64,000 nucleotides of DNA from NCBI GenBank assembly GCA_044237845.1, contig JBIIEL010000006.1, forward strand, positions 4,124 through 68,123, read 5' to 3'. Shown here piece by piece: positions 9,272 to 48,160 of the stretch. This DNA comes from Rickettsiales bacterium (GTDB taxonomy: Bacteria; Pseudomonadota; Alphaproteobacteria; Rickettsiales; UBA3002). Positions within the stretch are counted from its first letter, which is position 1. Each line of letters begins with the position of its first letter. The notes below the pieces were generated by a model. It did no database searches. It saw only the letters and a list, made by a program, of their open reading frames with translations, and was not told the DNA's origin. A program made the translations under genes and the position numbers.

Positions 9272-9658
9272 CTAGTCTTCAACTTCGATATTCTCTTCCA
9301 CGAAGCTCATGCCCGCTTGGCCTTGCTCGACATAGGACTGCGTTTCGGCAATCGCGTGGTGCATTTCGTCGTGGCCGAGGCTGTAGCTCGCGTGATTCTC
9401 TTCTTCCTCGATACGATCGTTCGGATCGAAGCCCGCTTTTTTCTGGAAATTGCTGATGATTTCTTCGTTCACCAGTTTCACATCGATGGTTTTGTCAGCG
9501 ATTTCGCGCAGGGAAACAACCGCGTCCTTGTCGTTATCACGGTCGATTGTCAGCGGCATACCTGAGGAAATCTGCTTCGCACGCTGCGCGGCAGTGACCA
9601 CCAAATCAAAGCGGTTTGGAACGATTTGGATGCAATCTTCAACGGTGACGCGTGCCAT
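9272..9658 (-). CDS. rpoZ: DNA-directed RNA polymerase subunit omega
   Basis: [33 protein letters not shown] is the canonical RpoZ N-terminus. Confidence 0.9.
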
Positions 9659-9755
9659 GGAGGCTCCTGATAAAGCGAGGTTAAGGACTAAGGATAGGGG
9701 CTATTAGAAGAAAACATTGCGGTTTGCAAGCAAAACTCTTAAGGAGTTTACCCCT

Positions 9756-14456: not shown

Positions 14457-14909
14457 CTAGTATAACCGATTCATATACTCAGTCCAGAACCGTTCGAGAT
14501 TGTGCATGGATTTGTTAGCTTCCATCAAGAACGCTAGGCCTGGGCTACGCTTATCGAGATCTGCTACATTTCGCTCAATCAACGCATCCATTTTTTCAAC
14601 GAGACTTAGACCTTTTTCCGACAGTTTTACGCGCGTCGAACGCTTGTCATGCGGCGCTTTTTCCTGCACCAAATAGCCTGTACCCACGAGATGTTTCACG
14701 TTATAGGATACGTTTGTACCGAGATAGTAGCCACGGTTAATCAACTCGCCCACCGTGAGTTGATCGACCCCGATATTATAGAGAATCAGCGTTTGTACGT
14801 TGTTGATATCCTCAACCTTGAGGCGATCAAGCTCGCTTTTTACCACGTCGAGAAAACGGCGGTGCAAGCGTTCGATCAGCAAAATGGTCTCAAGATAGGT
14901 TTTTTTCAC
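14457..14909 (-). CDS. MarR-family winged-helix transcriptional regulator
   Basis: 150 aa. The wHTH region LTVGELINRGYYLGTNVSYNVKHLVGTGYLVQEKAPHDKRSTRVKLSEKG matches the MarR pattern. Confidence 0.7.
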   Translation of the reverse strand: MKKTYLETILLIERLHRRFLDVVKSELDRLKVEDINNVQTLILYNIGVDQLTVGELINRGYYLGTNVSYNVKHLVGTGYLVQEKAPHDKRSTRVKLSEKGLSLVEKMDALIERNVADLDKRSPGLAFLMEANKSMHNLERFWTEYMNRLY

Positions 14910-15034
14910 AGGTCTCTCCGTTTAGGTAACACTAGCTGTCATTAGTTGCGTACAGGTTCAAAAAGTCAAGTAGTCCAAGCGAGTTAGCCCCAACCGCATG
15001 AAGATGGTCCTTAGTGTTGCCATAAATTGCGCGC

Positions 15035-16525
15035 TTATTCAAGCAATGCTGGGTCAGAAGTCAACCGTACTGTGACGAGCGTTCCTTTACCAAGCTCGCT
15101 TTCCACTTTGATTTTGCCGTGATGTAATTCTACCAGCCTCTTAGTCAGCGGCAAGCCAAGACCTGCGCCTTCGTATTTACGATTGAGTCCCGAGTCTGAT
15201 TGATTGAACGTCAGGAAGGCCTTCGCCACATCTTCTTGCGACATACCGATGCCAGTGTCTTGGATTTCGATGACAAAATAATGGACACCATTTTTCGCGG
15301 CTTCAGCGCTCGCGCGTATCACCACTTTGCTACCCTCATTGCTGAACTTAATCGCATTCGACAGCAAGTTGAGTAAAATTTGTACCAGTCGCACACGGTC
15401 GGCGTAAATCTTTGGTAGTTTTTCAGGAAGATCCGTATAAATATCGATTTTACGCTCCAGCGCCTGCCCGCTAATAATATTCAGCGTTTTTTCAATAATT
15501 TTCGACAAATTCAGCTGCTCAAATTTTATACTGAGCGTACCTGTTTCCGCCTTCGAGAGGTCGAGAATATCATTAATTACATCAAGTAAATGACGACCTG
15601 ATTCATGAATATCGTGCGCATATTCCGTATATTTAGGATGCCCCATGGGACCAAACTGCTCTGACTCAAGCATCGTTGAGAACCCAATGATAGCATTGAG
15701 CGGTGTACGGAGTTCGTGGCTGACATTGGCCAAGAATTGTGATTTAGCTTGGCTTGCTACCACAGCAGCGTGACGTGATTTCTCAAGCTCAGCGCTTTTG
15801 CGTGTGAGCCTTGTGTCACGGTCTTCAATTTCATGCAGCATCGCGTTGAACGACTCCGTCAGCGCATCAATTTCTTTTGGCACAACAGAAAGTGTCCCAA
15901 TCACCACCCGTAGCGAATAATCCTTATATAGCGAAACACGTTGCGCAGTCGTTGCGATTTGGCGAATGGGGGTCAGCAATATGCGCTCTAACTCCAACCC
16001 AAGCATCCAGTTCAGCAACCCCACCACAATACAAGCCGCAACAGCAAATAAGAGGCAACGCACAAGGGCGGCCATGACGTTTGGCTCCATCACGACAAGC
16101 ACTACATCTCCACTTGATTGTGGCAATGAAGGGTTGGTGATCGGCACGCGTACCAGTATATTGCTTTTTTCTATCTGTGCGAGCGAGGTTGCCTCACAGT
16201 TGGCAACCTCCTTATCGACCGTTTCAAGTGCATTGCCGTAGACACTGGCCCGCACTGCGCCTTCTGCACTCACAATGCATGCTAATTTTAGCGATGGATT
16301 GACCGTTGCCGGCTTGAGTAATGCATTTAATTCCGCCGTCGATGCCACACCTTTGTCCCATAGGCCTACCGCGATCATGGTCGCTTGCGTCTGCAGCTCA
16401 TGTGCGACCGCCGCTTTGCGCTCCGCCGCCGTAGCAAAGAGCAGACTACCCGTCAACAACGGCACAAGAATCGCGCATAGTAGCACGATATGATTACGGT
16501 AAAGCTGCTGAATCGAAAATCCCAT
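15035..16525 (-). CDS. membrane sensor histidine kinase (TM-HAMP-HisKA-HATPase)
   Basis: H-box [16 protein letters not shown]-box [10 protein letters not shown]-boxes DTGIGM and GAGLGL. No cognate response regulator is adjacent. Confidence 0.85.
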
Positions 16526-16654: not shown

Positions 16655-18478
16655 ATGTGTGGCATCATTGGTGTTATTGGCAATCAACCTGCAGCAGCGC
16701 TGGCGCTCGGTGCATTGAAACGTCTGGAATACCGCGGCTATGATTCCGCTGGCATCGCCACGCTGGTAGATGGACGCATCGAGCGTCGCCGCGCGCAAGG
16801 CAAACTAGCTGCGCTGGAGGCAGCACTGACTGCATCCCCCCTTGGTGGCACATTGGGCATCGGCCACACGCGCTGGGCGACGCACGGACTGCCGAATGAG
16901 ACCAACGCCCACCCGCACGCGACGGATAAAGTGGCGGTGGTGCATAATGGCATTATCGAAAATTTTCAGGAGTTACGGGCGGAGCTGGAGGCACTGGGGC
17001 ATCGCTTCACCAGCCAGACGGATACCGAGGTGGTGCCACAGCTCATTACCCTTTACCTGGCACAGGGCAAATCACCGCGCGAAGCAGTGAGTGCCACCTT
17101 AAAGCGTCTGCATGGCGCTTTTGCGCTCGGCATTATTTTTGCCGATGCGCCGGATGTGATTTATGCCGCGCGCCTTGGGTCACCGCTCGCCATCGGTCTT
17201 GGTGAGGGCGAAAACTATCTCGGTTCCGACGCGGTGGCGCTCGCCCCCCTCACCCGCAAGATTTGTTACCTCGCGGAAGGCGACTGGGCCGAAATTCGGC
17301 GGGAAAGCGTAACGATTTATGACAAAAACGATGTCGTGGTTGAACGTCCTTATAAAATCAGCGCCCTCACCGGCGCCTCGACGGGCAAAGGCGACTACCG
17401 CCATTTCATGCAGAAAGAAATTTACGAGCAGCCCTCCGTCATCGGCCAAACGCTCAACGTCTATTATAATCCCACCACCGCGCGCGTAGCGATGCCTGCA
17501 CTGCCGTTTGACCTTAAAGATATTACCAATATCACCATCGTCGCCTGCGGCACGTCCTACTATGCGGGCCTCACCGCACGTTACTGGATTGAGGCGCTCG
17601 CCCGAATCGCCGTCGATATCGATGTGGCGTCGGAGTTCCGCTACCGCGAACCGGTGATGCAAAAGAATGGCCTCACCATTGTTATCTCGCAATCTGGCGA
17701 AACGGCAGATACCCTCGCCGCGCTGCGTTATGCCAAAGCGCAAGGGCAACATACGCTGGCCATCGTCAACGCGCCGGAATCCAGCATGTCGCACGAGGCA
17801 GAGGCCACGCTCTACACCCATGCGGGGCCTGAAATCGGCGTCGCGAGCACCAAAGCCTTCACCACGCAACTCACCGTGCTCGCCTGCTTCGCGCTGGCGC
17901 TTGCCGATGCACGCGGCACACTGAATGCTCCTGAAATGGCGCGCCTCACCCATGCGCTGGCAGAAGTGCCTGCCCGCGTGGCCGAGGTGCTGCATAACGG
18001 CGAGGAACTGGAAAAACTCGCGCAGAAAATTCAGCACGCCAAAGACATGCTCTATATCGGCCGTGGGACAAGCTTTGCCATCGCCCACGAAGCCGCGCTC
18101 AAGATGAAAGAAATTTCCTACATTCATGCCGAGGCTTATGCGGCGGGCGAAATGAAGCACGGCCCTATCGCGCTGATTGACAAATCCGTGCCAATTATTG
18201 CCATTGCACCCAAGGATCACCTGTTCGAAAAAACCGCGAGCAACATCCAGGAAGCCGCCGCACGCGGTGGCCGCATTATTGTGATGTCAGATGCCGAGGG
18301 TATCGCCGCGCTAGGCAATATCGTCAGCGAATCGATGACGCTGCCGACGGTTCATCCCTTCGTAACGCCGATTCTCTATGCGATTCCGGCACAACTCCTC
18401 GCCTATTATACAGCAGTGCTGAAGGGTACGGATGTTGATCAACCGCGCAACCTCGCGAAATCAGTGACCGTTGAATAG
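16655..18478 (+). CDS. glmS: glutamine--fructose-6-phosphate aminotransferase
   Basis: MCGIIGVIG N-terminal nucleophile, two SIS domains, and the C-terminal LAKSVTVE. Confidence 0.95.
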   Translation: MCGIIGVIGNQPAAALALGALKRLEYRGYDSAGIATLVDGRIERRRAQGKLAALEAALTASPLGGTLGIGHTRWATHGLPNETNAHPHATDKVAVVHNGIIENFQELRAELEALGHRFTSQTDTEVVPQLITLYLAQGKSPREAVSATLKRLHGAFALGIIFADAPDVIYAARLGSPLAIGLGEGENYLGSDAVALAPLTRKICYLAEGDWAEIRRESVTIYDKNDVVVERPYKISALTGASTGKGDYRHFMQKEIYEQPSVIGQTLNVYYNPTTARVAMPALPFDLKDITNITIVACGTSYYAGLTARYWIEALARIAVDIDVASEFRYREPVMQKNGLTIVISQSGETADTLAALRYAKAQGQHTLAIVNAPESSMSHEAEATLYTHAGPEIGVASTKAFTTQLTVLACFALALADARGTLNAPEMARLTHALAEVPARVAEVLHNGEELEKLAQKIQHAKDMLYIGRGTSFAIAHEAALKMKEISYIHAEAYAAGEMKHGPIALIDKSVPIIAIAPKDHLFEKTASNIQEAAARGGRIIVMSDAEGIAALGNIVSESMTLPTVHPFVTPILYAIPAQLLAYYTAVLKGTDVDQPRNLAKSVTVE

Positions 18479-18479
18479 T

Positions 18480-19178
18480 CTAGAGCGCGATCAGAGGCAG
18501 CAATAACGCACCAGCCGCATAGATAACCACGCGCTTTGTCTTGGGCACGAGTAATTTTAGTACATAAATGGGCAGAATAAACTTCCACAGCGCAAAAGGA
18601 AGCAGCGCCCCCATCAAGGTGAACCACCATATCCACGGCTTGGTGAAGGGCGATGCTTTATTGCCTGCCGCACGATACATAAGCAACGCGATGACAAGCA
18701 TCACGAAGCCGGTTTGAATGAATCCGTAAATGGTTCCCTCGGCCAGCGTGCGCGCGAGCGCCACCGCCATGAGTGCGTAGGAATAAATGCTCGAGGAAAT
18801 CCAGCCCTGCTGCCAGTGAATTGCGGCGAGAATGAGTACCATCGTGCCATAGAATGTGTAGAGAACGAACGGCTCGCTGATACCGAAATGCAGGAAATAA
18901 GCGATAAACATGACGCCGCATACTGCCTCGATCACTGTATAGAGCGCCGGGATTTCACCCGTACAATAACGGCATTTACCGCGTGTCATCAGCCACGAAA
19001 GGATAGGAAAAAGGTCAATCGGGTTCAAATCTGCATTGCAATGCCCGCAGAACGGATGACGCTCGAACGGTGTTTTCCCAAGCGGAAGACGATACACCAC
19101 TGAACAGGCGTAATTCCCAACTGCCGGGCCAATCACCAGCATCATAATGATGCCGATAAGGGTAAATTCCCCGATCAA
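18480..19178 (-). CDS. prepilin peptidase (A24) homologue lacking both catalytic aspartates
   Basis: The N-terminal Cys4 domain is clear (VVYRLP...CGHCNADLNPIDLFPILSWLMTRGKCRYCTGEIPALYTVIE). The polytopic C-terminal region contains no Asp at all. Confidence 0.7.
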   Translation of the reverse strand: MIGEFTLIGIIMMLVIGPAVGNYACSVVYRLPLGKTPFERHPFCGHCNADLNPIDLFPILSWLMTRGKCRYCTGEIPALYTVIEAVCGVMFIAYFLHFGISEPFVLYTFYGTMVLILAAIHWQQGWISSSIYSYALMAVALARTLAEGTIYGFIQTGFVMLVIALLMYRAAGNKASPFTKPWIWWFTLMGALLPFALWKFILPIYVLKLLVPKTKRVVIYAAGALLLPLIAL

Positions 19179-28979: not shown

Positions 28980-29555
28980 TTAGCGAATCACGCCGGATTG
29001 CTTCAAGTTAGTGACCATTGCCGTCTGCACGGTGTTGAACACTTGTTCTTCGGTCAGCGTATTTCCGGCAGTGAGCTTGGTTTTTAAGTCCGCCACAGCT
29101 TTCAGCCCTGCTGCGTAAGCCGTTTCAACCTTAGCCGCCGTGTCTTTAACCAACGGAATATGGTAGCTGGTTTTATCAAACGATAGCACCAGTTCGGCTT
29201 CTTTTTTTCCGGAGAAATCGTTATACGCATCGTGCCATGGATTAAGATCCGTTGCCAACGAATCTATATTGCCAATATTGAGTGATTTTAATGCGTTATC
29301 TAGCTTCGCTGTCGGACTTTTCGGCGCAAGATTAAAACCGCCATAGCGACCATCTTCAAAGAGCGATTGTATTTTTTTTGCTTCCCCAGCATCCGTACCT
29401 TCGGGATAGTCAAAATGAGGACTCGCTATCCCCAATTTTGGCTGAGCATCACGAAAATCACGATCCGGTTTAGCGACAGTGGATTCAATCGATAGCTTGA
29501 TTCTATGTGTCATAAAAAACTCCGTGTTAGTTAAAGGGTTGAGCAACAAGGTCAT
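28980..29555 (-). CDS. hypothetical soluble protein (orphan)
   Basis: ORF track. Two candidate starts: ATG 29553-29555, preceded by G8-TAAA, and ATG 29511-29513, preceded by GGAG plus 7 nt. A Pho-box-like repeat lies upstream. Confidence 0.6.
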   Translation of the reverse strand: MTLLLNPLTNTEFFMTHRIKLSIESTVAKPDRDFRDAQPKLGIASPHFDYPEGTDAGEAKKIQSLFEDGRYGGFNLAPKSPTAKLDNALKSLNIGNIDSLATDLNPWHDAYNDFSGKKEAELVLSFDKTSYHIPLVKDTAAKVETAYAAGLKAVADLKTKLTAGNTLTEEQVFNTVQTAMVTNLKQSGVIR

Positions 29556-29559
29556 TTTA

Positions 29560-29567
29560 CCCCCCCC
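29560..29567 (-). repeat. homopolymeric G8 tract (C8 on the plus strand) in the leader/RBS of the orphan gene
   Basis: Read directly: tttaCCCCCCCCacat, 4 nt upstream of ATG 29555. Confidence 0.9.
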
Positions 29568-29588
29568 ACATTAACACAAGTTAATTTA

Positions 29589-29607
29589 TGTGAAGTTTTT
29601 GTGACAA
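29589..29607 (-). promoter_or_regulatory. Pho-box-like direct repeat TTGTCACaaaaaCTTCACA
   Basis: Minus-strand reading. The hexamers are 11 bp apart. It shares the 13-nt core CAAAAMCTTCACA with three other loci. Confidence 0.55.
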
Positions 29608-34662: not shown

Positions 34663-34684
34663 GAAGGTTACCAAATTAACCTTT

Positions 34685-34717
34685 TTGACCAAAAACTTCA
34701 CAAAACTGTCACAAAAC
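34685..34717 (+). promoter_or_regulatory. Pho-box-like phased repeats TTGACCaaaaaCTTCACaaaacTGTCACaaaac
   Basis: Hexamers start at 34696 and 34707 (11 bp apart), with a weaker one at 34686. Contains the core CAAAAACTTCACA (34690-34702). Confidence 0.55.
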
Positions 34718-34764
34718 TCTGCGATGACCTGTGTTATTCTGATGATGAATAAATACGGGAATCG

Positions 34765-35400
34765 ATGGTTCAACCGATACAGTCTGGCCTGAATATGCCG
34801 CGCGGCGCAAGCTTTGCTGCGGCTGATGGCGTGGATGCAGATACCATCATCAACATCAATCATCAGGAAACGCCGCAGACCACCGCGCCGATTATTGTTC
34901 AGCAGCCGCAACCGACTTATACACCCGCTGTGCCGCAGCCGACCTATGCTCCCGCCCCGCGCATCGGTGGTAACATTGCGGGTGTACCCAGACAAACCAT
35001 CGAGATGAAGCCGGTCACCAAACACAGCGTCAACTGGGGCAGCGTGGTCAAAGGCGCACTCATCGTCACCGGCATTGTCGTCGCCGGTGTGGTTGGGTAT
35101 TGGGCGCTCAGCGCCGCTGCGGGTTGGGCGGTTACTACAGAGCTAGGCATCGCTACCGTCAATGCTCTGGCGCCCGCAGTCACCGCAGCAGGGAACGGGC
35201 TTGCCTATCTCGGCGGATTTTTAAGTAACGTTCCCGCCATTATCGGCGGATTCTTCTCCGGCGCCGCACAGGCGCTTGGGCTGACCACTGCACTAAGTAG
35301 CGCAACAACAGGAGCCATCGCAAGTGGTGCGGGCGCACTTGGTGCTGGCGGAAGCCGCAGGTGCCACAGTTGCATTGGCACCGCATCTCAGCGGCATTGA
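34765..35400 (+). CDS. orphan membrane protein, 5' part (Pro-rich N-terminus, Gly/Ala-rich TM segments); probably fused with the next ORF
   Basis: ORF track. The last about 17 aa of this frame (SRRCHSCIGTASQRH) look out of frame. Confidence 0.55.
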   Translation: MVQPIQSGLNMPRGASFAAADGVDADTIININHQETPQTTAPIIVQQPQPTYTPAVPQPTYAPAPRIGGNIAGVPRQTIEMKPVTKHSVNWGSVVKGALIVTGIVVAGVVGYWALSAAAGWAVTTELGIATVNALAPAVTAAGNGLAYLGGFLSNVPAIIGGFFSGAAQALGLTTALSSATTGAIASGAGALGAGGSRRCHSCIGTASQRH

Positions 35401-36034
35401 TCTGACACACCAGACTACAACGCAAGTTGCTACTACCAACCTTCATGATCACGCCGTTAGCGCAACCACGCCGGTTGTGCCGCACCATGATGGTGGCATG
35501 TTCTCCGGTCTCAAATCGATGTTCACCAGCAACGCGACAGATCATGCTGCGGCGACGGATATGGTCGATGTGCCGGAATCAGGCTCCGCGAACCTTGCGA
35601 ATGCCGCTGCGGCACAGCGCTCGATTGAACATGCCAACCATGCCGCCGCACACGCGAACCAAACAGCAGCAGAACTTGGGCATCACTCGCTGGAGCATCA
35701 CGATGCGCATGGCGCTTTCCACCTTCCGCATTTGGGTCGTCACGAGAATGCAGGTAGCCATCACGAACCATCGGCAGATCATCAGGATAGTGCATCCCCG
35801 GATGTAGATATTCCAGACGAAGCTCCCGGAAGCCGTCGCCGCAACTGGCGTGACCGCCTGACGGGCGCGAATAACTATCAGCAAGCGTTCCAATCGACCG
35901 GCAGCCATGGCGCTGCCATTCGCGCAATGCAGCCGCAAGGCAGCAGCATCACCCCGCGGGCGAGTGAATTCTCGCAAGCGCTGAACGATGACCGTGCGAA
36001 ACTCGACGCTGCCCTCGGCGACAATATTCGCTAA
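35324..36034 (+). CDS. orphan protein, 3' part (His-rich, low complexity); +1 frame relative to the previous ORF
   Basis: ORF track. The Gly/Ala theme continues across the frame change near 35345-35352 (...GAGALGAGG / EAAGATVALAP...). Confidence 0.5.
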   Translation: MVRAHLVLAEAAGATVALAPHLSGIDLTHQTTTQVATTNLHDHAVSATTPVVPHHDGGMFSGLKSMFTSNATDHAAATDMVDVPESGSANLANAAAAQRSIEHANHAAAHANQTAAELGHHSLEHHDAHGAFHLPHLGRHENAGSHHEPSADHQDSASPDVDIPDEAPGSRRRNWRDRLTGANNYQQAFQSTGSHGAAIRAMQPQGSSITPRASEFSQALNDDRAKLDAALGDNIR

Positions 36035-36060
36035 AGTTTTAGCGAATTATCAGCGCGTTT

Positions 36061-36110
36061 TGTTACAAAACCTTCACATAAAATCGTCTGCGTTGTCATC
36101 AAACTGTAAC
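36061..36110 (+). promoter_or_regulatory. four Pho-box-like hexamers in 11-bp register (TGTTAC, CTTCAC, TGTCAT, TGTAAC)
   Basis: Hexamers start at 36061, 36072, 36094 and 36105. Contains both shared cores: CAAAACCTTCACA (36066-36078) and TTGTCATCAAACTGT (36093-36107). Confidence 0.6.
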
Positions 36111-36161
36111 AATCATCTGTTAGGGTGAGAGTAAGGAAAAAACCTAACAAGGATTCTCGCC

Positions 36162-36497
36162 ATGACAGAGTTCGAAAACATCATCGCTAATAAAGACCTT
36201 GGCTGCTTCAGTGCGAAGAGTCCGATTGAGTTGACTCAAGTGGGCGTAACGAGTGTTATCAATCCTAAGCATACAAAAGAGGATATTTTTCGCGCGACGC
36301 AGTTTATCTGGGACTCTGCACCTGCGATAATCGCAAAGGACATGGTCATCGGGGCAGGTATGATGGCTTTACCAGTTGTAGCGGCGGGTATCTCAGATAA
36401 TTTTACTGCAGGTTTGCTGGTTGGTGGCGCTGCAATTAAAAAAGGAATCGACAGCCTTGCTTCGAACAAACCTCGCGGCGGCAACAGCATCACCTAA
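36162..36497 (+). CDS. small orphan protein with C-terminal Gly/Ala-rich membrane segment
   Basis: ORF track. AAGGA lies 10 nt upstream of the ATG, and a strong terminator follows the gene. Confidence 0.6.
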   Translation: MTEFENIIANKDLGCFSAKSPIELTQVGVTSVINPKHTKEDIFRATQFIWDSAPAIIAKDMVIGAGMMALPVVAAGISDNFTAGLLVGGAAIKKGIDSLASNKPRGGNSIT

Positions 36498-36519: not shown

Positions 36520-36547
36520 AAAACCCCGCCAGTGGCGGGGTTTTTTA
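36520..36547. terminator. bidirectional rho-independent terminator
   Basis: gaaaaaCCCCGCCagtGGCGGGGtttttta: a 7-bp GC stem with an A-run upstream and a T-run downstream. It sits between the convergent genes 36162..36497 and phaR. Confidence 0.85.
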
Positions 36548-40646: not shown

Positions 40647-41132
40647 CTAGCGCATAATCGCCTGTTGTCTACTCGCGATATGGTTTAGCATCGCGCTTGC
40701 AAATTGGAGATTGGCGCTTTCAGGCTCATTTTCGAGCGCTTTCTGAACACGTTTTTTGAGCAAGTTAAAATCCTCCTCAGAGATAGTGTTTGCTGAGCCC
40801 ACAGCTTTCGCGCAAGTCGCTGCATGGCCTAGCGCAGAGTTGCGGACGTACAGCTTCTGTGCACTCTGCAGAAAATCAGTGAGTATCTGAAGTTCTGTTC
40901 TATTATCTTTGGGATCCCAAGCCTTACCTTTTACCGTGAGCAATTGCGCTCTTAGCACCCCAAACTCCGGAGCCTGGATAGTCTCACGAAAAGGCCCAGG
41001 CATAAACTGCACGTGCGGTTGTAGTTTACCTTCGGGTGTAGAGGGGCCCTGAACCTTGGTATTCATGGGCGTCATGCCCAAAAGGGTCGGGTTCATTTCA
41101 GTATTCACGCCGCGCTGATGTAGCTTTCCCAT
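40647..41132 (-). CDS. hypothetical soluble protein (orphan, 161 aa)
   Basis: ORF track. AGGTAGGAG lies upstream of the ATG, and a near-canonical Pho box lies 50 nt upstream. Confidence 0.6.
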   Translation of the reverse strand: MGKLHQRGVNTEMNPTLLGMTPMNTKVQGPSTPEGKLQPHVQFMPGPFRETIQAPEFGVLRAQLLTVKGKAWDPKDNRTELQILTDFLQSAQKLYVRNSALGHAATCAKAVGSANTISEEDFNLLKKRVQKALENEPESANLQFASAMLNHIASRQQAIMR

Positions 41133-41181
41133 CCAAGACTCCTACCTTCTTTGTGTGAGGTAATAGCCCTGTTCTATCATC

Positions 41182-41204
41182 GAATGATGACAGTTTGATG
41201 ACAA
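41182..41204 (-). promoter_or_regulatory. near-canonical Pho box TTGTCATcaaaCTGTCATcattc
   Basis: Minus-strand reading. Two TGTCAT hexamers lie 11 bp apart, to be compared with the E. coli consensus CTGTCATA(A/T)A(A/T)CTGTCA(C/T). Confidence 0.6.
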
Positions 41205-41215
41205 TCAGAGAGAAA

Positions 41216-41404
41216 CTAGGCGTCGTGATGCTGAAGCACCAAGGTGTTGGGCTTTGCCATGGTCATTTTGATGTGGTTGGTACGCTTTTGCAGGGGCGTG
41301 CTCTCATCATCATACCACACATGGCTGATGGTGCCGGTCGAAAGAGCGGCATATTTCACGGCTTGCGGGCGGTTGCCGGTATTCTTATTTACACGAATCA
41401 ACAT
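41216..41404 (-). CDS. small hypothetical protein (62 aa)
   Basis: ORF track. Strong RBS AAGGAAAGGA 8 nt upstream of the ATG. A CtrA box lies about 45 nt upstream. Confidence 0.5.
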   Translation of the reverse strand: MLIRVNKNTGNRPQAVKYAALSTGTISHVWYDDESTPLQKRTNHIKMTMAKPNTLVLQHHDA

Positions 41405-41446: not shown

Positions 41447-41463
41447 GTTAATACTTGATTAAC
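41447..41463. promoter_or_regulatory. full CtrA-type box GTTAA-N7-TTAAC
   Basis: gTTAAtacttgaTTAAc read directly. It is symmetric, so it matches TTAA-N7-TTAAC on both strands. Confidence 0.5.
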
Positions 41464-47883: not shown

Positions 47884-48160
47884 CTGCTACTAAACGATTC
47901 TGTTTTTAGACGGAAACGATAATTACATTTTGACTTACTTTATATAGCCTGTTACGCGAGGTTCATGAGGCGGAAATCCGTCTCTGGGGTGTGAAGACCT
48001 CTCAAGTACCGGCACTTGTGCAGCCGTCAATTGCACTCCCTAGCGTTTGGCTGGGGAGGTTTTGGCGTATGTCCAGGCTTAACAGCTAAAGGCCAAAACA
48101 AACCTGTACTTGGGTTTCTTCAACTCCCCTGCCACCATCACCTTGCTTAGGGAGTTCTAT

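Follow-up and report, generated by a model that had tools for sequence, protein, structure and literature searches.

A conserved element made of direct repeats in 11-bp register precedes five orphan genes or operons in a 64-kb stretch of DNA from a Rickettsiales bacterium (assembly GCA_044237845.1, contig JBIIEL010000006.1; this whole stretch is called the window below). By their sequence and position the repeats could be operators of a response regulator of the PhoB type (OmpR/PhoB family), with PhoB itself the most likely one, and we put both the operator reading and PhoB as the protein that reads the boxes at a probability of roughly 0.5. As far as promoter and protein comparisons indicate, the element, referred to here as the box and found also before about 100 genes of this kind in related uncultured alphaproteobacteria, marks a conserved regulon of lineage-specific proteins, with the regulator and its signal being what we infer. 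The repeats had first been picked out in a reading of the sequence alone, which proposed a single PhoB-type regulon; the five orphans do share a clade-conserved cis-element, and naming PhoB is a reasonable proposal.

The motif strings and coordinates of the five sites, numbered (i) to (v), were all correct on re-reading, and the four hexamers of site (i) at 36061, 36072, 36094, and 36105 do lie in one 11-bp register (11, 33, and 44 nt apart). The 13-mer CAAAAMCTTCACA occurs 4 times (29589 and 63423 on the minus strand, 34690 and 36066 on the plus strand) and the 15-mer TTGTCATCAAACTGT twice (36093 on the plus strand, 41190 on the minus strand), beyond chance as first claimed, with 0 copies of either expected from dinucleotide-preserving shuffles, which supplied the chance expectations for motif strings. 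The full 19-mer TTGTCACAAAAMCTTCACA has 2 exact copies and one with a single mismatch. A position weight matrix (PWM) trained on the 7 hexamer-N5-hexamer dimers of the window recovers just these 7 when both strands are scanned (2 x 64 kb), all at 22.5 bits or more, with the runner-up site at 11.9. All 7 dimers keep the 11-bp register with a spacer of AAAA(A/C) or CAAA, and each site is oriented toward the adjacent start codon at a distance of 34 to 60 nt.

Intergenic DNA makes up 6.5% of the window and holds 4 of the 4 perfect matches to the loose pattern YKTCAY-N5-YKTCAY. With one mismatch allowed, there are 6 intergenic matches, all inside the five promoters, and 17 coding matches that lack the A-rich spacer and are close to chance (10.7 in shuffles), so that the comparison of intergenic with coding frequency proposed in the sequence-only reading speaks for the motif. 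The stricter pattern TGTCAY-N5-YTKTCAY has no match in the window. CTTCACA alone is not enriched there, which places the signal in the dimer; one copy, at 47990, is solitary and without a partner hexamer. Rfam and tRNA scans of the window gave no matches. Near-identical 13- to 19-mers in several intergenic regions might also be left behind by a dispersed mobile or repetitive element, similar to miniature inverted-repeat transposable elements or repetitive extragenic palindromes, or arise as chance matches, but we give this explanation practically no weight. Shuffles yield no matches, the orientation and the distances to the start codon and the −10 are fixed, and the box is kept in orthologous promoters while the surrounding bases vary. 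When the five promoter regions are aligned, identity stops at the box edges, with no terminal repeats, common flanks, or conserved unit beyond the motif, and a dispersed repeat, which had been named at the outset as a possible source, was rejected.

Exact scans for the 19-mer returned 59 loci from one genome per species and 61 loci from JGI metagenome contigs, where roughly 10 to 15 matches each would be expected by chance; the L-numbers used below denote fetched loci, 129 in all. About two-thirds of the matches come from uncultured alphaproteobacterial metagenome-assembled genomes (MAGs) labeled "Rickettsiales bacterium," "uncultured Azospirillum sp.," or "Alphaproteobacteria bacterium," with several matches per genome and 10 in CAZGXX01, the closest relative of the window (77% to 89% nucleotide identity across syntenic stretches). 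The motif is extremely conserved across MAGs that range from 39% to 60% G+C.

A footprint free of the query string comes from gene (iv), whose 425-aa product has only 12 homologues among 1.84 billion representatives in an exhaustive profile search and no match in a word-indexed homology search. Five homologue loci (L124, L125, L127, L128, and L129) were chosen purely by protein identity, which is 25% to 34%, and all 5 have the box at the same place. Four of these promoters read TTGTCAC-A(C/T)AAT-CTTCACA and that of L124 reads TCTTCAC-AAAAC-CTTCACA; in all five, exactly 21 nt separate the box from TATAAA, TATAAC, or TATGTT. No change is seen in the hexamers or their spacing, but the bases of the spacer and of the 21-nt interval differ freely from locus to locus. 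The gene order spoT-x-x-(x)-pdxJ-acpS is retained in 3 of the 5 loci.

The position of the box relative to the core promoter was read from 111 unique copies of TTGTCACAAAAMCTTCACA in public genomes and metagenomes, whose flanks were not selected by the query. A TAnnnT hexamer starts at offset 21 after the 19-mer in 37 of 111 copies and at offset 20 in 7, with other offsets averaging about 2.5; TG stands at −15/−14 in 32 of the 48 sites with TAnnnT at offsets 19 to 23, and no hexamer is conserved at the −35 position among the 19-mer sites. This fixed 21-nt offset to an extended −10 places the box at about −52 to −34, and the box is, on the evidence of these flanking sequences, a promoter element without a −35 but with an extended −10.

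Both TTCACA and TTGTCA match the consensus TTGACA at 5 of 6 positions and stand at a fixed distance from the −10, and one might therefore take them for −35 elements read by sigma-70 or an alternative sigma factor with no activator involved. We regard this as very unlikely. The spacer from TTCACA to the −10 is 21 nt, far beyond the 16 to 18 nt usable by sigma-70, and a consensus −35/−10 scan finds no promoter at the boxes, with no canonical promoter before genes (i) and (ii). The −10 is of the typical TG-extended housekeeping type, not that of extracytoplasmic function sigma factors, and the sites consist of two to five repeats in 11-bp phase, with interchangeable half-site order and extra dimers 33 bp upstream, which a −35 element would not lead one to expect.

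In approximately 615 kb of clade DNA, 54 further perfect dimers were found independently of the query string, and they separate into two classes by their distance to the −10: TAnnnT lies 22 nt past the second hexamer in 21 of the 54 and 10 nt past it in 7. Cross-tabulated, class A (gap of 21 to 22 nt) pairs TGTCAC with CTTCAC in either order (58 + 12 sites), with one TGTCAY/TGTCAY pair. Class B (gap of 10 nt) is mostly xGTCAY-N5-xGTCAY with a CAAAC or GAAAC spacer and a TAGnnT −10, which in sequence and position is the canonical E. coli Pho box. Among the query-independent sites, heterotypic half-site pairs outnumber homotypic ones by 34 to 9, and homotypic TTCAC pairs make up 2 of the 54 dimers.

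Some promoters hold both classes. In promoter (i) of the window and in L040, L020, L057, and L053, class A and class B dimers form a 2+2 arrangement set 33 bp (three helical turns) apart, and in L052 they form four contiguous repeats; this phasing and the contiguous array point to one protein, or one protein family, that would bind cooperatively along one face of the helix. The sites also show what is generally seen at operators of OmpR/PhoB-family activators, namely, half-sites arranged head to tail at intervals of one turn, always in the same orientation and at a constant distance from the core promoter, and the architecture assigned to them at the start (11-bp direct repeats, A-rich spacers, one orientation, fixed −10 distance) is borne out.

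In the mechanism that we favor, a phosphorylated regulator would occupy two or more direct repeats of 11 bp in head-to-tail fashion, each repeat having a (T/C)(G/T)TCA(C/T) core and an A-rich spacer, and would recruit sigma-70 RNA polymerase to −35-less promoters with a good, often TG-extended, −10. At class A sites, the pair of one TGTCAC and one CTTCAC in any order would end 21 to 22 nt before the −10, at about −52 to −34; at class B sites (TGTCAY-N5-TGTCAY) the gap to the −10 would be 10 nt, like that of E. coli Pho boxes; and extra dimers would sit 33 bp, or three turns, upstream. The helically phased arrays (11 and 33 bp) are what cooperative binding would be expected to produce. The genes controlled in this way would be dozens of small, lineage-restricted, fast-evolving ones scattered among housekeeping genes, with products that mostly lack Sec signals and of which one-third carry Gly/Ala-rich hydrophobic segments. 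The motif with its orientation, conservation, and −10 spacing and the genes behind it are observations; activation by the box, the identity of the bound protein, and phosphate limitation as the signal are all parts that we infer.

PhoB is favored because of the TGTCA(C/T) half-site, the Pho-box sequence and 10-nt geometry of class B, and the 19-mer found ahead of ugpB and next to pstSCAB elsewhere. Two occurrences of the identical 19-mer outside the clade stand out: one is 128 nt ahead of ugpBAEC in L071 and L064 (UgpB equivalog, 513 bits), two related contigs with differing upstream flanks, and the other precedes an arsR-arsC-arsC-aquaporin operon that abuts pstCAB-pstS on a gammaproteobacterial metagenome contig (L088/L105, 3059-5117). 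Both are typical Pho contexts, and the second may represent Pho-linked arsenic resistance. The downstream gene was uninterpretable at the Sphingomonas-labeled L053 and at L034, L035, and L038 from Pseudomonas.

In the E. coli pstS and phoA promoters, the Pho box replaces the −35 element and ends 10 bp upstream of the −10. The Pho box itself consists of two 11-bp repeats, each with 7 conserved bases and a 4-nt A/T-rich spacer, with the consensus CTGTCAT (PMC4415409, PMC4447250). When the window sites are held against this description, all 7 dimers show the 11-bp repeat with its spacer. TGTCA is present in both repeats of (v), and the proximal dimer of (i) has TGTCAT and TGTAAC (one mismatch), while one repeat is CTTCA in (ii), (iii), (iv), and the distal dimer of (i). 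The 10-nt gap is found in class B, including the proximal dimer of (i) and possibly (v), and the majority class has 21 to 22 nt. The proposed likeness to the Pho box holds for the sequence and gap of class B; class A has a CTTCAC half-site and another position. With the TGTCA tract in both repeats and the 10-bp gap reproduced only in part, the set is not to be classed as an established PhoB regulon.

Several observations weigh against PhoB. Class A lies about 12 bp, or about one helical turn, further upstream than the E. coli Pho box, so that the known contact geometry of PhoB with sigma4 would not apply unchanged. This dominant class has a single TGTCA half-site, the other being the CreB half-site TTCAC, and the strong preference for heterotypic pairs points the same way. 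For a Pho regulon the sites are dense, with 5 promoters within 64 kb and 10 exact 19-mers in CAZGXX01, and no recognizable phosphate-acquisition proteins (0) are encoded among the approximately 95 box-downstream proteins surveyed. No OmpR-family response-regulator genes were found in the window or the 129 fetched loci. A tblastn search of the window and these loci with E. coli PhoB, PhoU, PstS, and PstB gave only NtrC/NtrX-type receiver domains in the clade, and pst matches solely in one gammaproteobacterial contig; the clade loci contained no pst or pho genes, so pst promoters there were not inspected.

The survey of downstream proteins, drawn from the five window genes and three batches of loci, describes an unusual set of products. 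More than 90% of the approximately 95 proteins have no Pfam family, the exceptions being a curlin-repeat protein, an RTX/serralysin protease, a DnaJ-domain protein, an EEP-family nuclease/phosphatase, and a few others, and OmpR-family regulators are absent (0). Among 86 clade proteins, an N-terminal signal-like segment occurs in 2 and internal hydrophobic stretches, mostly Gly/Ala-rich, in 30. Grouping by BLASTP yields a few recurrent families, one of which has eight members of approximately 180 aa, and mostly singletons. The five window targets had been called orphans, and indeed all 5 are without a Pfam or NCBIfam family, as are about 6 of the 56 remaining open reading frames (ORFs) of the window.

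Relatives also carry box-plus-orphan cassettes where the window has none, giving a patchy distribution: between glmS and a prepilin peptidase gene in L039 from CAZGXX01 (window 18478-18500), at rpoZ/lipA in L003 (window 9658-9717), and near ftsB in L029 (window ~13100). Judging from these comparisons, genes join and leave the regulon at many places in the chromosome.

A set of products like this one could instead be run by a PhoB/CreB-subfamily paralogue particular to the lineage, or by a different regulator of the OmpR family, that controls interaction or "effector-like" proteins in response to a signal other than phosphate, and we treat this as a serious but less probable account. It would suit a regulon in which nearly every product is an orphan lacking a Sec signal and many contain Gly/Ala-rich hydrophobic domains, and whose genes are patchily inserted among housekeeping genes and diverge much faster than their own promoters; the analogy would be the control of Dot/Icm effector genes by PmrA in Legionella and Coxiella. 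The class A position, unlike that of canonical Pho boxes, and the preferred heterotypic half-sites would suit it as well. So would the similarity to the cre tag, the CreB operator TTCAC-N6-TTCAC, which class A matches at 9 of 10 positions and, in L124, at 10 of 10 (PMC13214185). Against a dedicated regulator, class B sites with the exact Pho-box sequence drive the same kind of genes and stand in phase with class A in the same promoters, the identical 19-mer precedes Pho-type genes outside the clade, and conservation of the motif over MAGs of 39% to 60% G+C would be easier to expect of a universally conserved regulator than of a young paralogue. The window and the fetched loci showed no gene that could encode such a regulator. 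Moreover, CreBC is not known from alphaproteobacteria and is not typical of them, which also counts against this account.

Compared over the same 10 positions, the 19-mer agrees with the cre tag at 9 and with the TGTCA-N6-TGTCA core of the Pho box at 8. The architecture is that of the OmpR/PhoB family, and the motif, standing between the Pho box and the cre tag, fits a PhoB/CreB-type regulator on sequence grounds. In the window, the sites read GTCAC-N6-TTCAC, TTCAC-N6-GTCAC, or GTCAT-N6-GTCAT, and the exact tag is found only in L124; as a sequence, then, the box is not a strict cre tag.

Of the conserved alphaproteobacterial regulators of the OmpR family, CtrA recognizes TTAA-N7-TTAA. Motifs have also been described for CenR (TGA-N8-TGA; PMC9275681) and for ChvI (GCC-N8-GCC or TTGC-N3-GCAA; PMC9731502). 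Sites of CtrA, CenR, and ChvI were rejected as the identity of the box because their motifs differ from it.

The operator type is familiar; what is unusual is that its half-sites pair as hybrids, that a second position is allowed one turn upstream, and that the regulon consists almost wholly of lineage-specific, non-Sec proteins. A more far-reaching proposal, which we hold as speculative and rather doubtful, is that the clade has placed dozens of fast-evolving, non-Sec, often membrane-inserting products under one Pho-box/cre-tag-hybrid operator, which PhoB or a paralogue dedicated to it would read in a noncanonical position. In that case the motif would be a genome-wide tag of an arsenal for interaction with hosts, prey, or surfaces, as the PmrA box does effectors, and a subclass would be gated by a CtrA-like site together with a phase-variable poly-G tract. 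The motif provides a sequence-only handle on co-regulated proteins that are otherwise invisible to annotation, in a clade that is widespread and known only from metagenomes (lakes, activated sludge, and soils). With it, the regulon can be listed for each MAG of the clade and orphan families can be prioritized for structural and functional work, and one can ask whether phosphate starvation or another signal controls them. The two classes one helical turn apart and the TGTCAC/CTTCAC preference raise the question of how a PhoB-type dimer would reach RNA polymerase from about −43. Should the regulator turn out to be plain PhoB, with ordinary starvation proteins as products, this would be a routine, though unusually clean, regulon.

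The coordinates of the individual promoters and targets are collected in the table.

Table. Box sites, candidate −10 elements, and target genes in the window
Feature	Position	Strand	Basis or remark
Promoter (i), distal dimer TTGTTAC-AAAA-CCTTCAC-A	36060..36078	+	PWM; auxiliary site, 33 bp (3 turns) upstream of proximal dimer
Promoter (i), proximal dimer TTGTCAT-CAAA-CTGTAAC, class B, canonical Pho-box-like	36093..36111	+	PWM; 10 nt upstream of TAGGGT
Promoter (i), candidate −10 TAGGGT	36121..36126	+	Read from sequence
Target gene (i), 111-aa orphan, internal Gly/Ala-rich hydrophobic segment	36162..36497	+	No Pfam/NCBIfam
Stem-loop CCCCGCC-AGT-GGCGGGG between A-run and T-run	36521-36547		Between convergent gene (i) and phaR
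Promoter (ii), three in-phase hexamers TTGACC / CTTCAC / TGTCAC	34684..34713	+	Last two form class A dimer
Promoter (ii), candidate extended −10 tgtgtTATTCT	34735..34740	+	21 nt after 19-mer
Target gene (ii), orphan	34765..36034	+	No Pfam/NCBIfam; orthologues in L057 and L020
Promoter (iii), class A box TTGTCACAAAAACTTCACA	29589..29607	-	13-mer, PWM
Promoter (iii), downstream module	29554..29584	-	TTAA-N6-TTAA 29584-29571, G8 29567-29560, TAAAAT 29559-29554
Target gene (iii), orphan, ~177 aa	28980..29513	-	No Pfam/NCBIfam
Promoter (iv), class A box TTGTCACAAAACCTTCACA	63423..63441	-	13-mer, PWM; conserved in 5/5 homologue loci
Promoter (iv), candidate −10 TATAAA	63396..63401	-	Exactly 21 nt after box
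Target operon (iv), three orphans	60844..63363	-	Between spoT and pdxJ
Operon (iv), 425-aa member	62086-63363	-	
Operon (iv), 87-99-aa member	61790-62053	-	
Operon (iv), 307-aa member	60844-61767	-	
Promoter (v), TTGTCAT-CAAA-CTGTCAT-C, class B, canonical Pho-box-like	41186..41204	-	15-mer, PWM
Promoter (v), two candidate −10s	41160..41176	-	TAGAAC 41176-41171 (10-nt gap); TATTAC 41165-41160 (20-nt gap)
Target gene (v), 161-aa orphan	40647..41132	-	No Pfam/NCBIfam

Orthologues of promoter (i) have TAGGGT, TAGTTT, or TATAAA at the same 10-nt gap. Between the gene (i) locus and L040 of CAZGXX01, the promoter and flanks align at 84% to 89% and the coding sequence (36170-36481) is unalignable, which indicates that the gene was replaced, or diverged very fast, beneath a conserved promoter. 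The stem-loop past its end looks like a bidirectional intrinsic terminator, though a simple scan does not list it. At promoter (ii), the string first quoted is correct, but its leading hexamer TTGACC is weak and the functional pair would be CTTCAC-N5-TGTCAC. This pair is kept, with a following A, in the orthologues L040, L057, and L020, and the −10 region of L040 and L057 likewise reads tgtgtTATTCT or tgcTATTCT. In L001, a contig 99.96% identical to the window, and in a JGI contig, gene (ii) forms one reading frame of 423 aa. Relative to L001, a 2-nt (TT) deletion near 35353 splits the window copy into two overlapping ORFs, which is either a real frameshift or pseudogene in this strain or an assembly error.

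Promoter (iii) belongs to a composite type. The box followed by TTAA-N7-TTAAC, a poly-G tract of G6 to at least G14, and TAAAC(T) precedes unrelated genes in L067, L072/L031, L081, L085, and L058. The window has TTAA-N6-TTAA at this place, and the exact CtrA-type TTAA-N7-TTAAC occurs in the related promoters. The poly-G length differs between two close relatives, G6 in one and G14, at a contig end, in the other, and the tract may be a phase-variable spacer or homopolymer assembly noise. Gene (iii) had been started at 29555, and the second ATG at 29513, preceded by a GGAG Shine-Dalgarno sequence, is probably the true start.

By prediction, the gene (iv) product is helical and has a hydrophobic anchor at its C terminus: the AlphaFold 2 model is helical with a C-terminal hydrophobic helix (mean predicted confidence score, pLDDT, of 78), and a comparison of this model with the PDB returned no significant structural neighbor. 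The gene (iv) homologue in L124 sits divergently beside a phasin gene, and phaRCAB lies about 22 kb away in the window. A word-indexed homology search with the gene (v) protein retrieves solely itself. Near this gene, a perfect palindromic CtrA-type box, GTTAATCAAGTATTAAC (41447-41463), reads TTAA-N7-TTAAC on either strand, where 0.23 such sites would be expected; it lies in the long intergenic region next to serA, upstream of a 62-aa orphan ORF (41216-41404) that terminates just before box (v).

The window is otherwise ordinary alphaproteobacterial chromosome, and about 50 of the approximately 60 ORFs other than the targets carry ordinary housekeeping domains. Its genes include bioBFDA-type genes, lipA, rpoZ, glmS, aroA, cmk, rpsA, trpFBA, addA, and thioredoxin; phaR/C/A/B, serA, infC, thrS, metG, holB, tmk, and dacC; and queCEF, pdxJ, acpS, and spoT. 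No pst or pho genes and no response regulators were found in the window, and gene lists past its right end give spoT, groES/EL, and more orphans, with no regulator. The sole kinase (15035-16525) is a generic histidine kinase that does not point to PhoR. It is a HAMP-HisKA-HATPase sensor kinase without an adjacent response regulator, followed by an LdtR-like MarR regulator and then a TAXI/NMT1-type solute-binding protein (14457-16525, minus strand); the neighbor was rejected as a clue to PhoR, as an LdtR-like MarR protein does not indicate it.

Among the known systems, the Pho box of E. coli, Sinorhizobium/Rhizobium, and Caulobacter shares with the box its 11-bp direct repeats, the TGTCA(C/T) core with an A/T-rich spacer of 4 to 5 nt, the direction toward a −35-less promoter, and multi-box arrays in helical phase. 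Rhizobia share the Pho-box consensus (PMC3131613), and PhoB contacts the TGTCA tract in the major groove and the AT-rich stretch in the minor groove (PMC4447250, PMC4415409). The proximal dimer of (i) and the dimer of (v) come closest, as CTGTCAT-N4-CTGTCA(C/T) with a 10-nt gap. Unlike the Pho box, the majority class combines TGTCAC with CTTCAC and lies approximately 12 bp further upstream (−52 to −34), and, unlike in Pho regulons, the targets are nearly all orphans, not pst, pho, ugp, or phn genes. The cre/blr tag, read by CreB/BlrA, the closest gammaproteobacterial paralogue of PhoB, is likewise an 11-bp direct repeat, and CTTCAC contains its half-site; each window site, however, has at least one GTCA-type half-site, and the CreB regulon consists of metabolic genes and creD, unrelated to the box targets.

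Two further systems resemble the box in other respects. In Bordetella, phase variation of fim2/fim3 arises from a poly-C tract that separates the activator site from the −10, with BvgA as the activator. Promoter (iii) and five similar promoters in relatives likewise have a G6 to G14 tract between the box and the putative −10, but the length variation here is seen between genomes, not within a population, BvgA is of another family, and a CtrA-like TTAA-N6/7-TTAA is also present. In Legionella pneumophila and Coxiella burnetii, many Dot/Icm effector genes carry the PmrA box (cTTAATatT-N2-cTTAATatT) at constant spacing from their −10 elements. Its half-sites have another sequence than ours, and no secretion system was identified here. 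As in the PmrA regulons, however, one tandem site of the OmpR-family type at a fixed −10 distance precedes dozens of unrelated, lineage-specific genes without Sec signals, and the motif could serve to predict the gene set. By analogy, the system described here resembles the Pho box in function and a PmrA-box effector regulon in composition.

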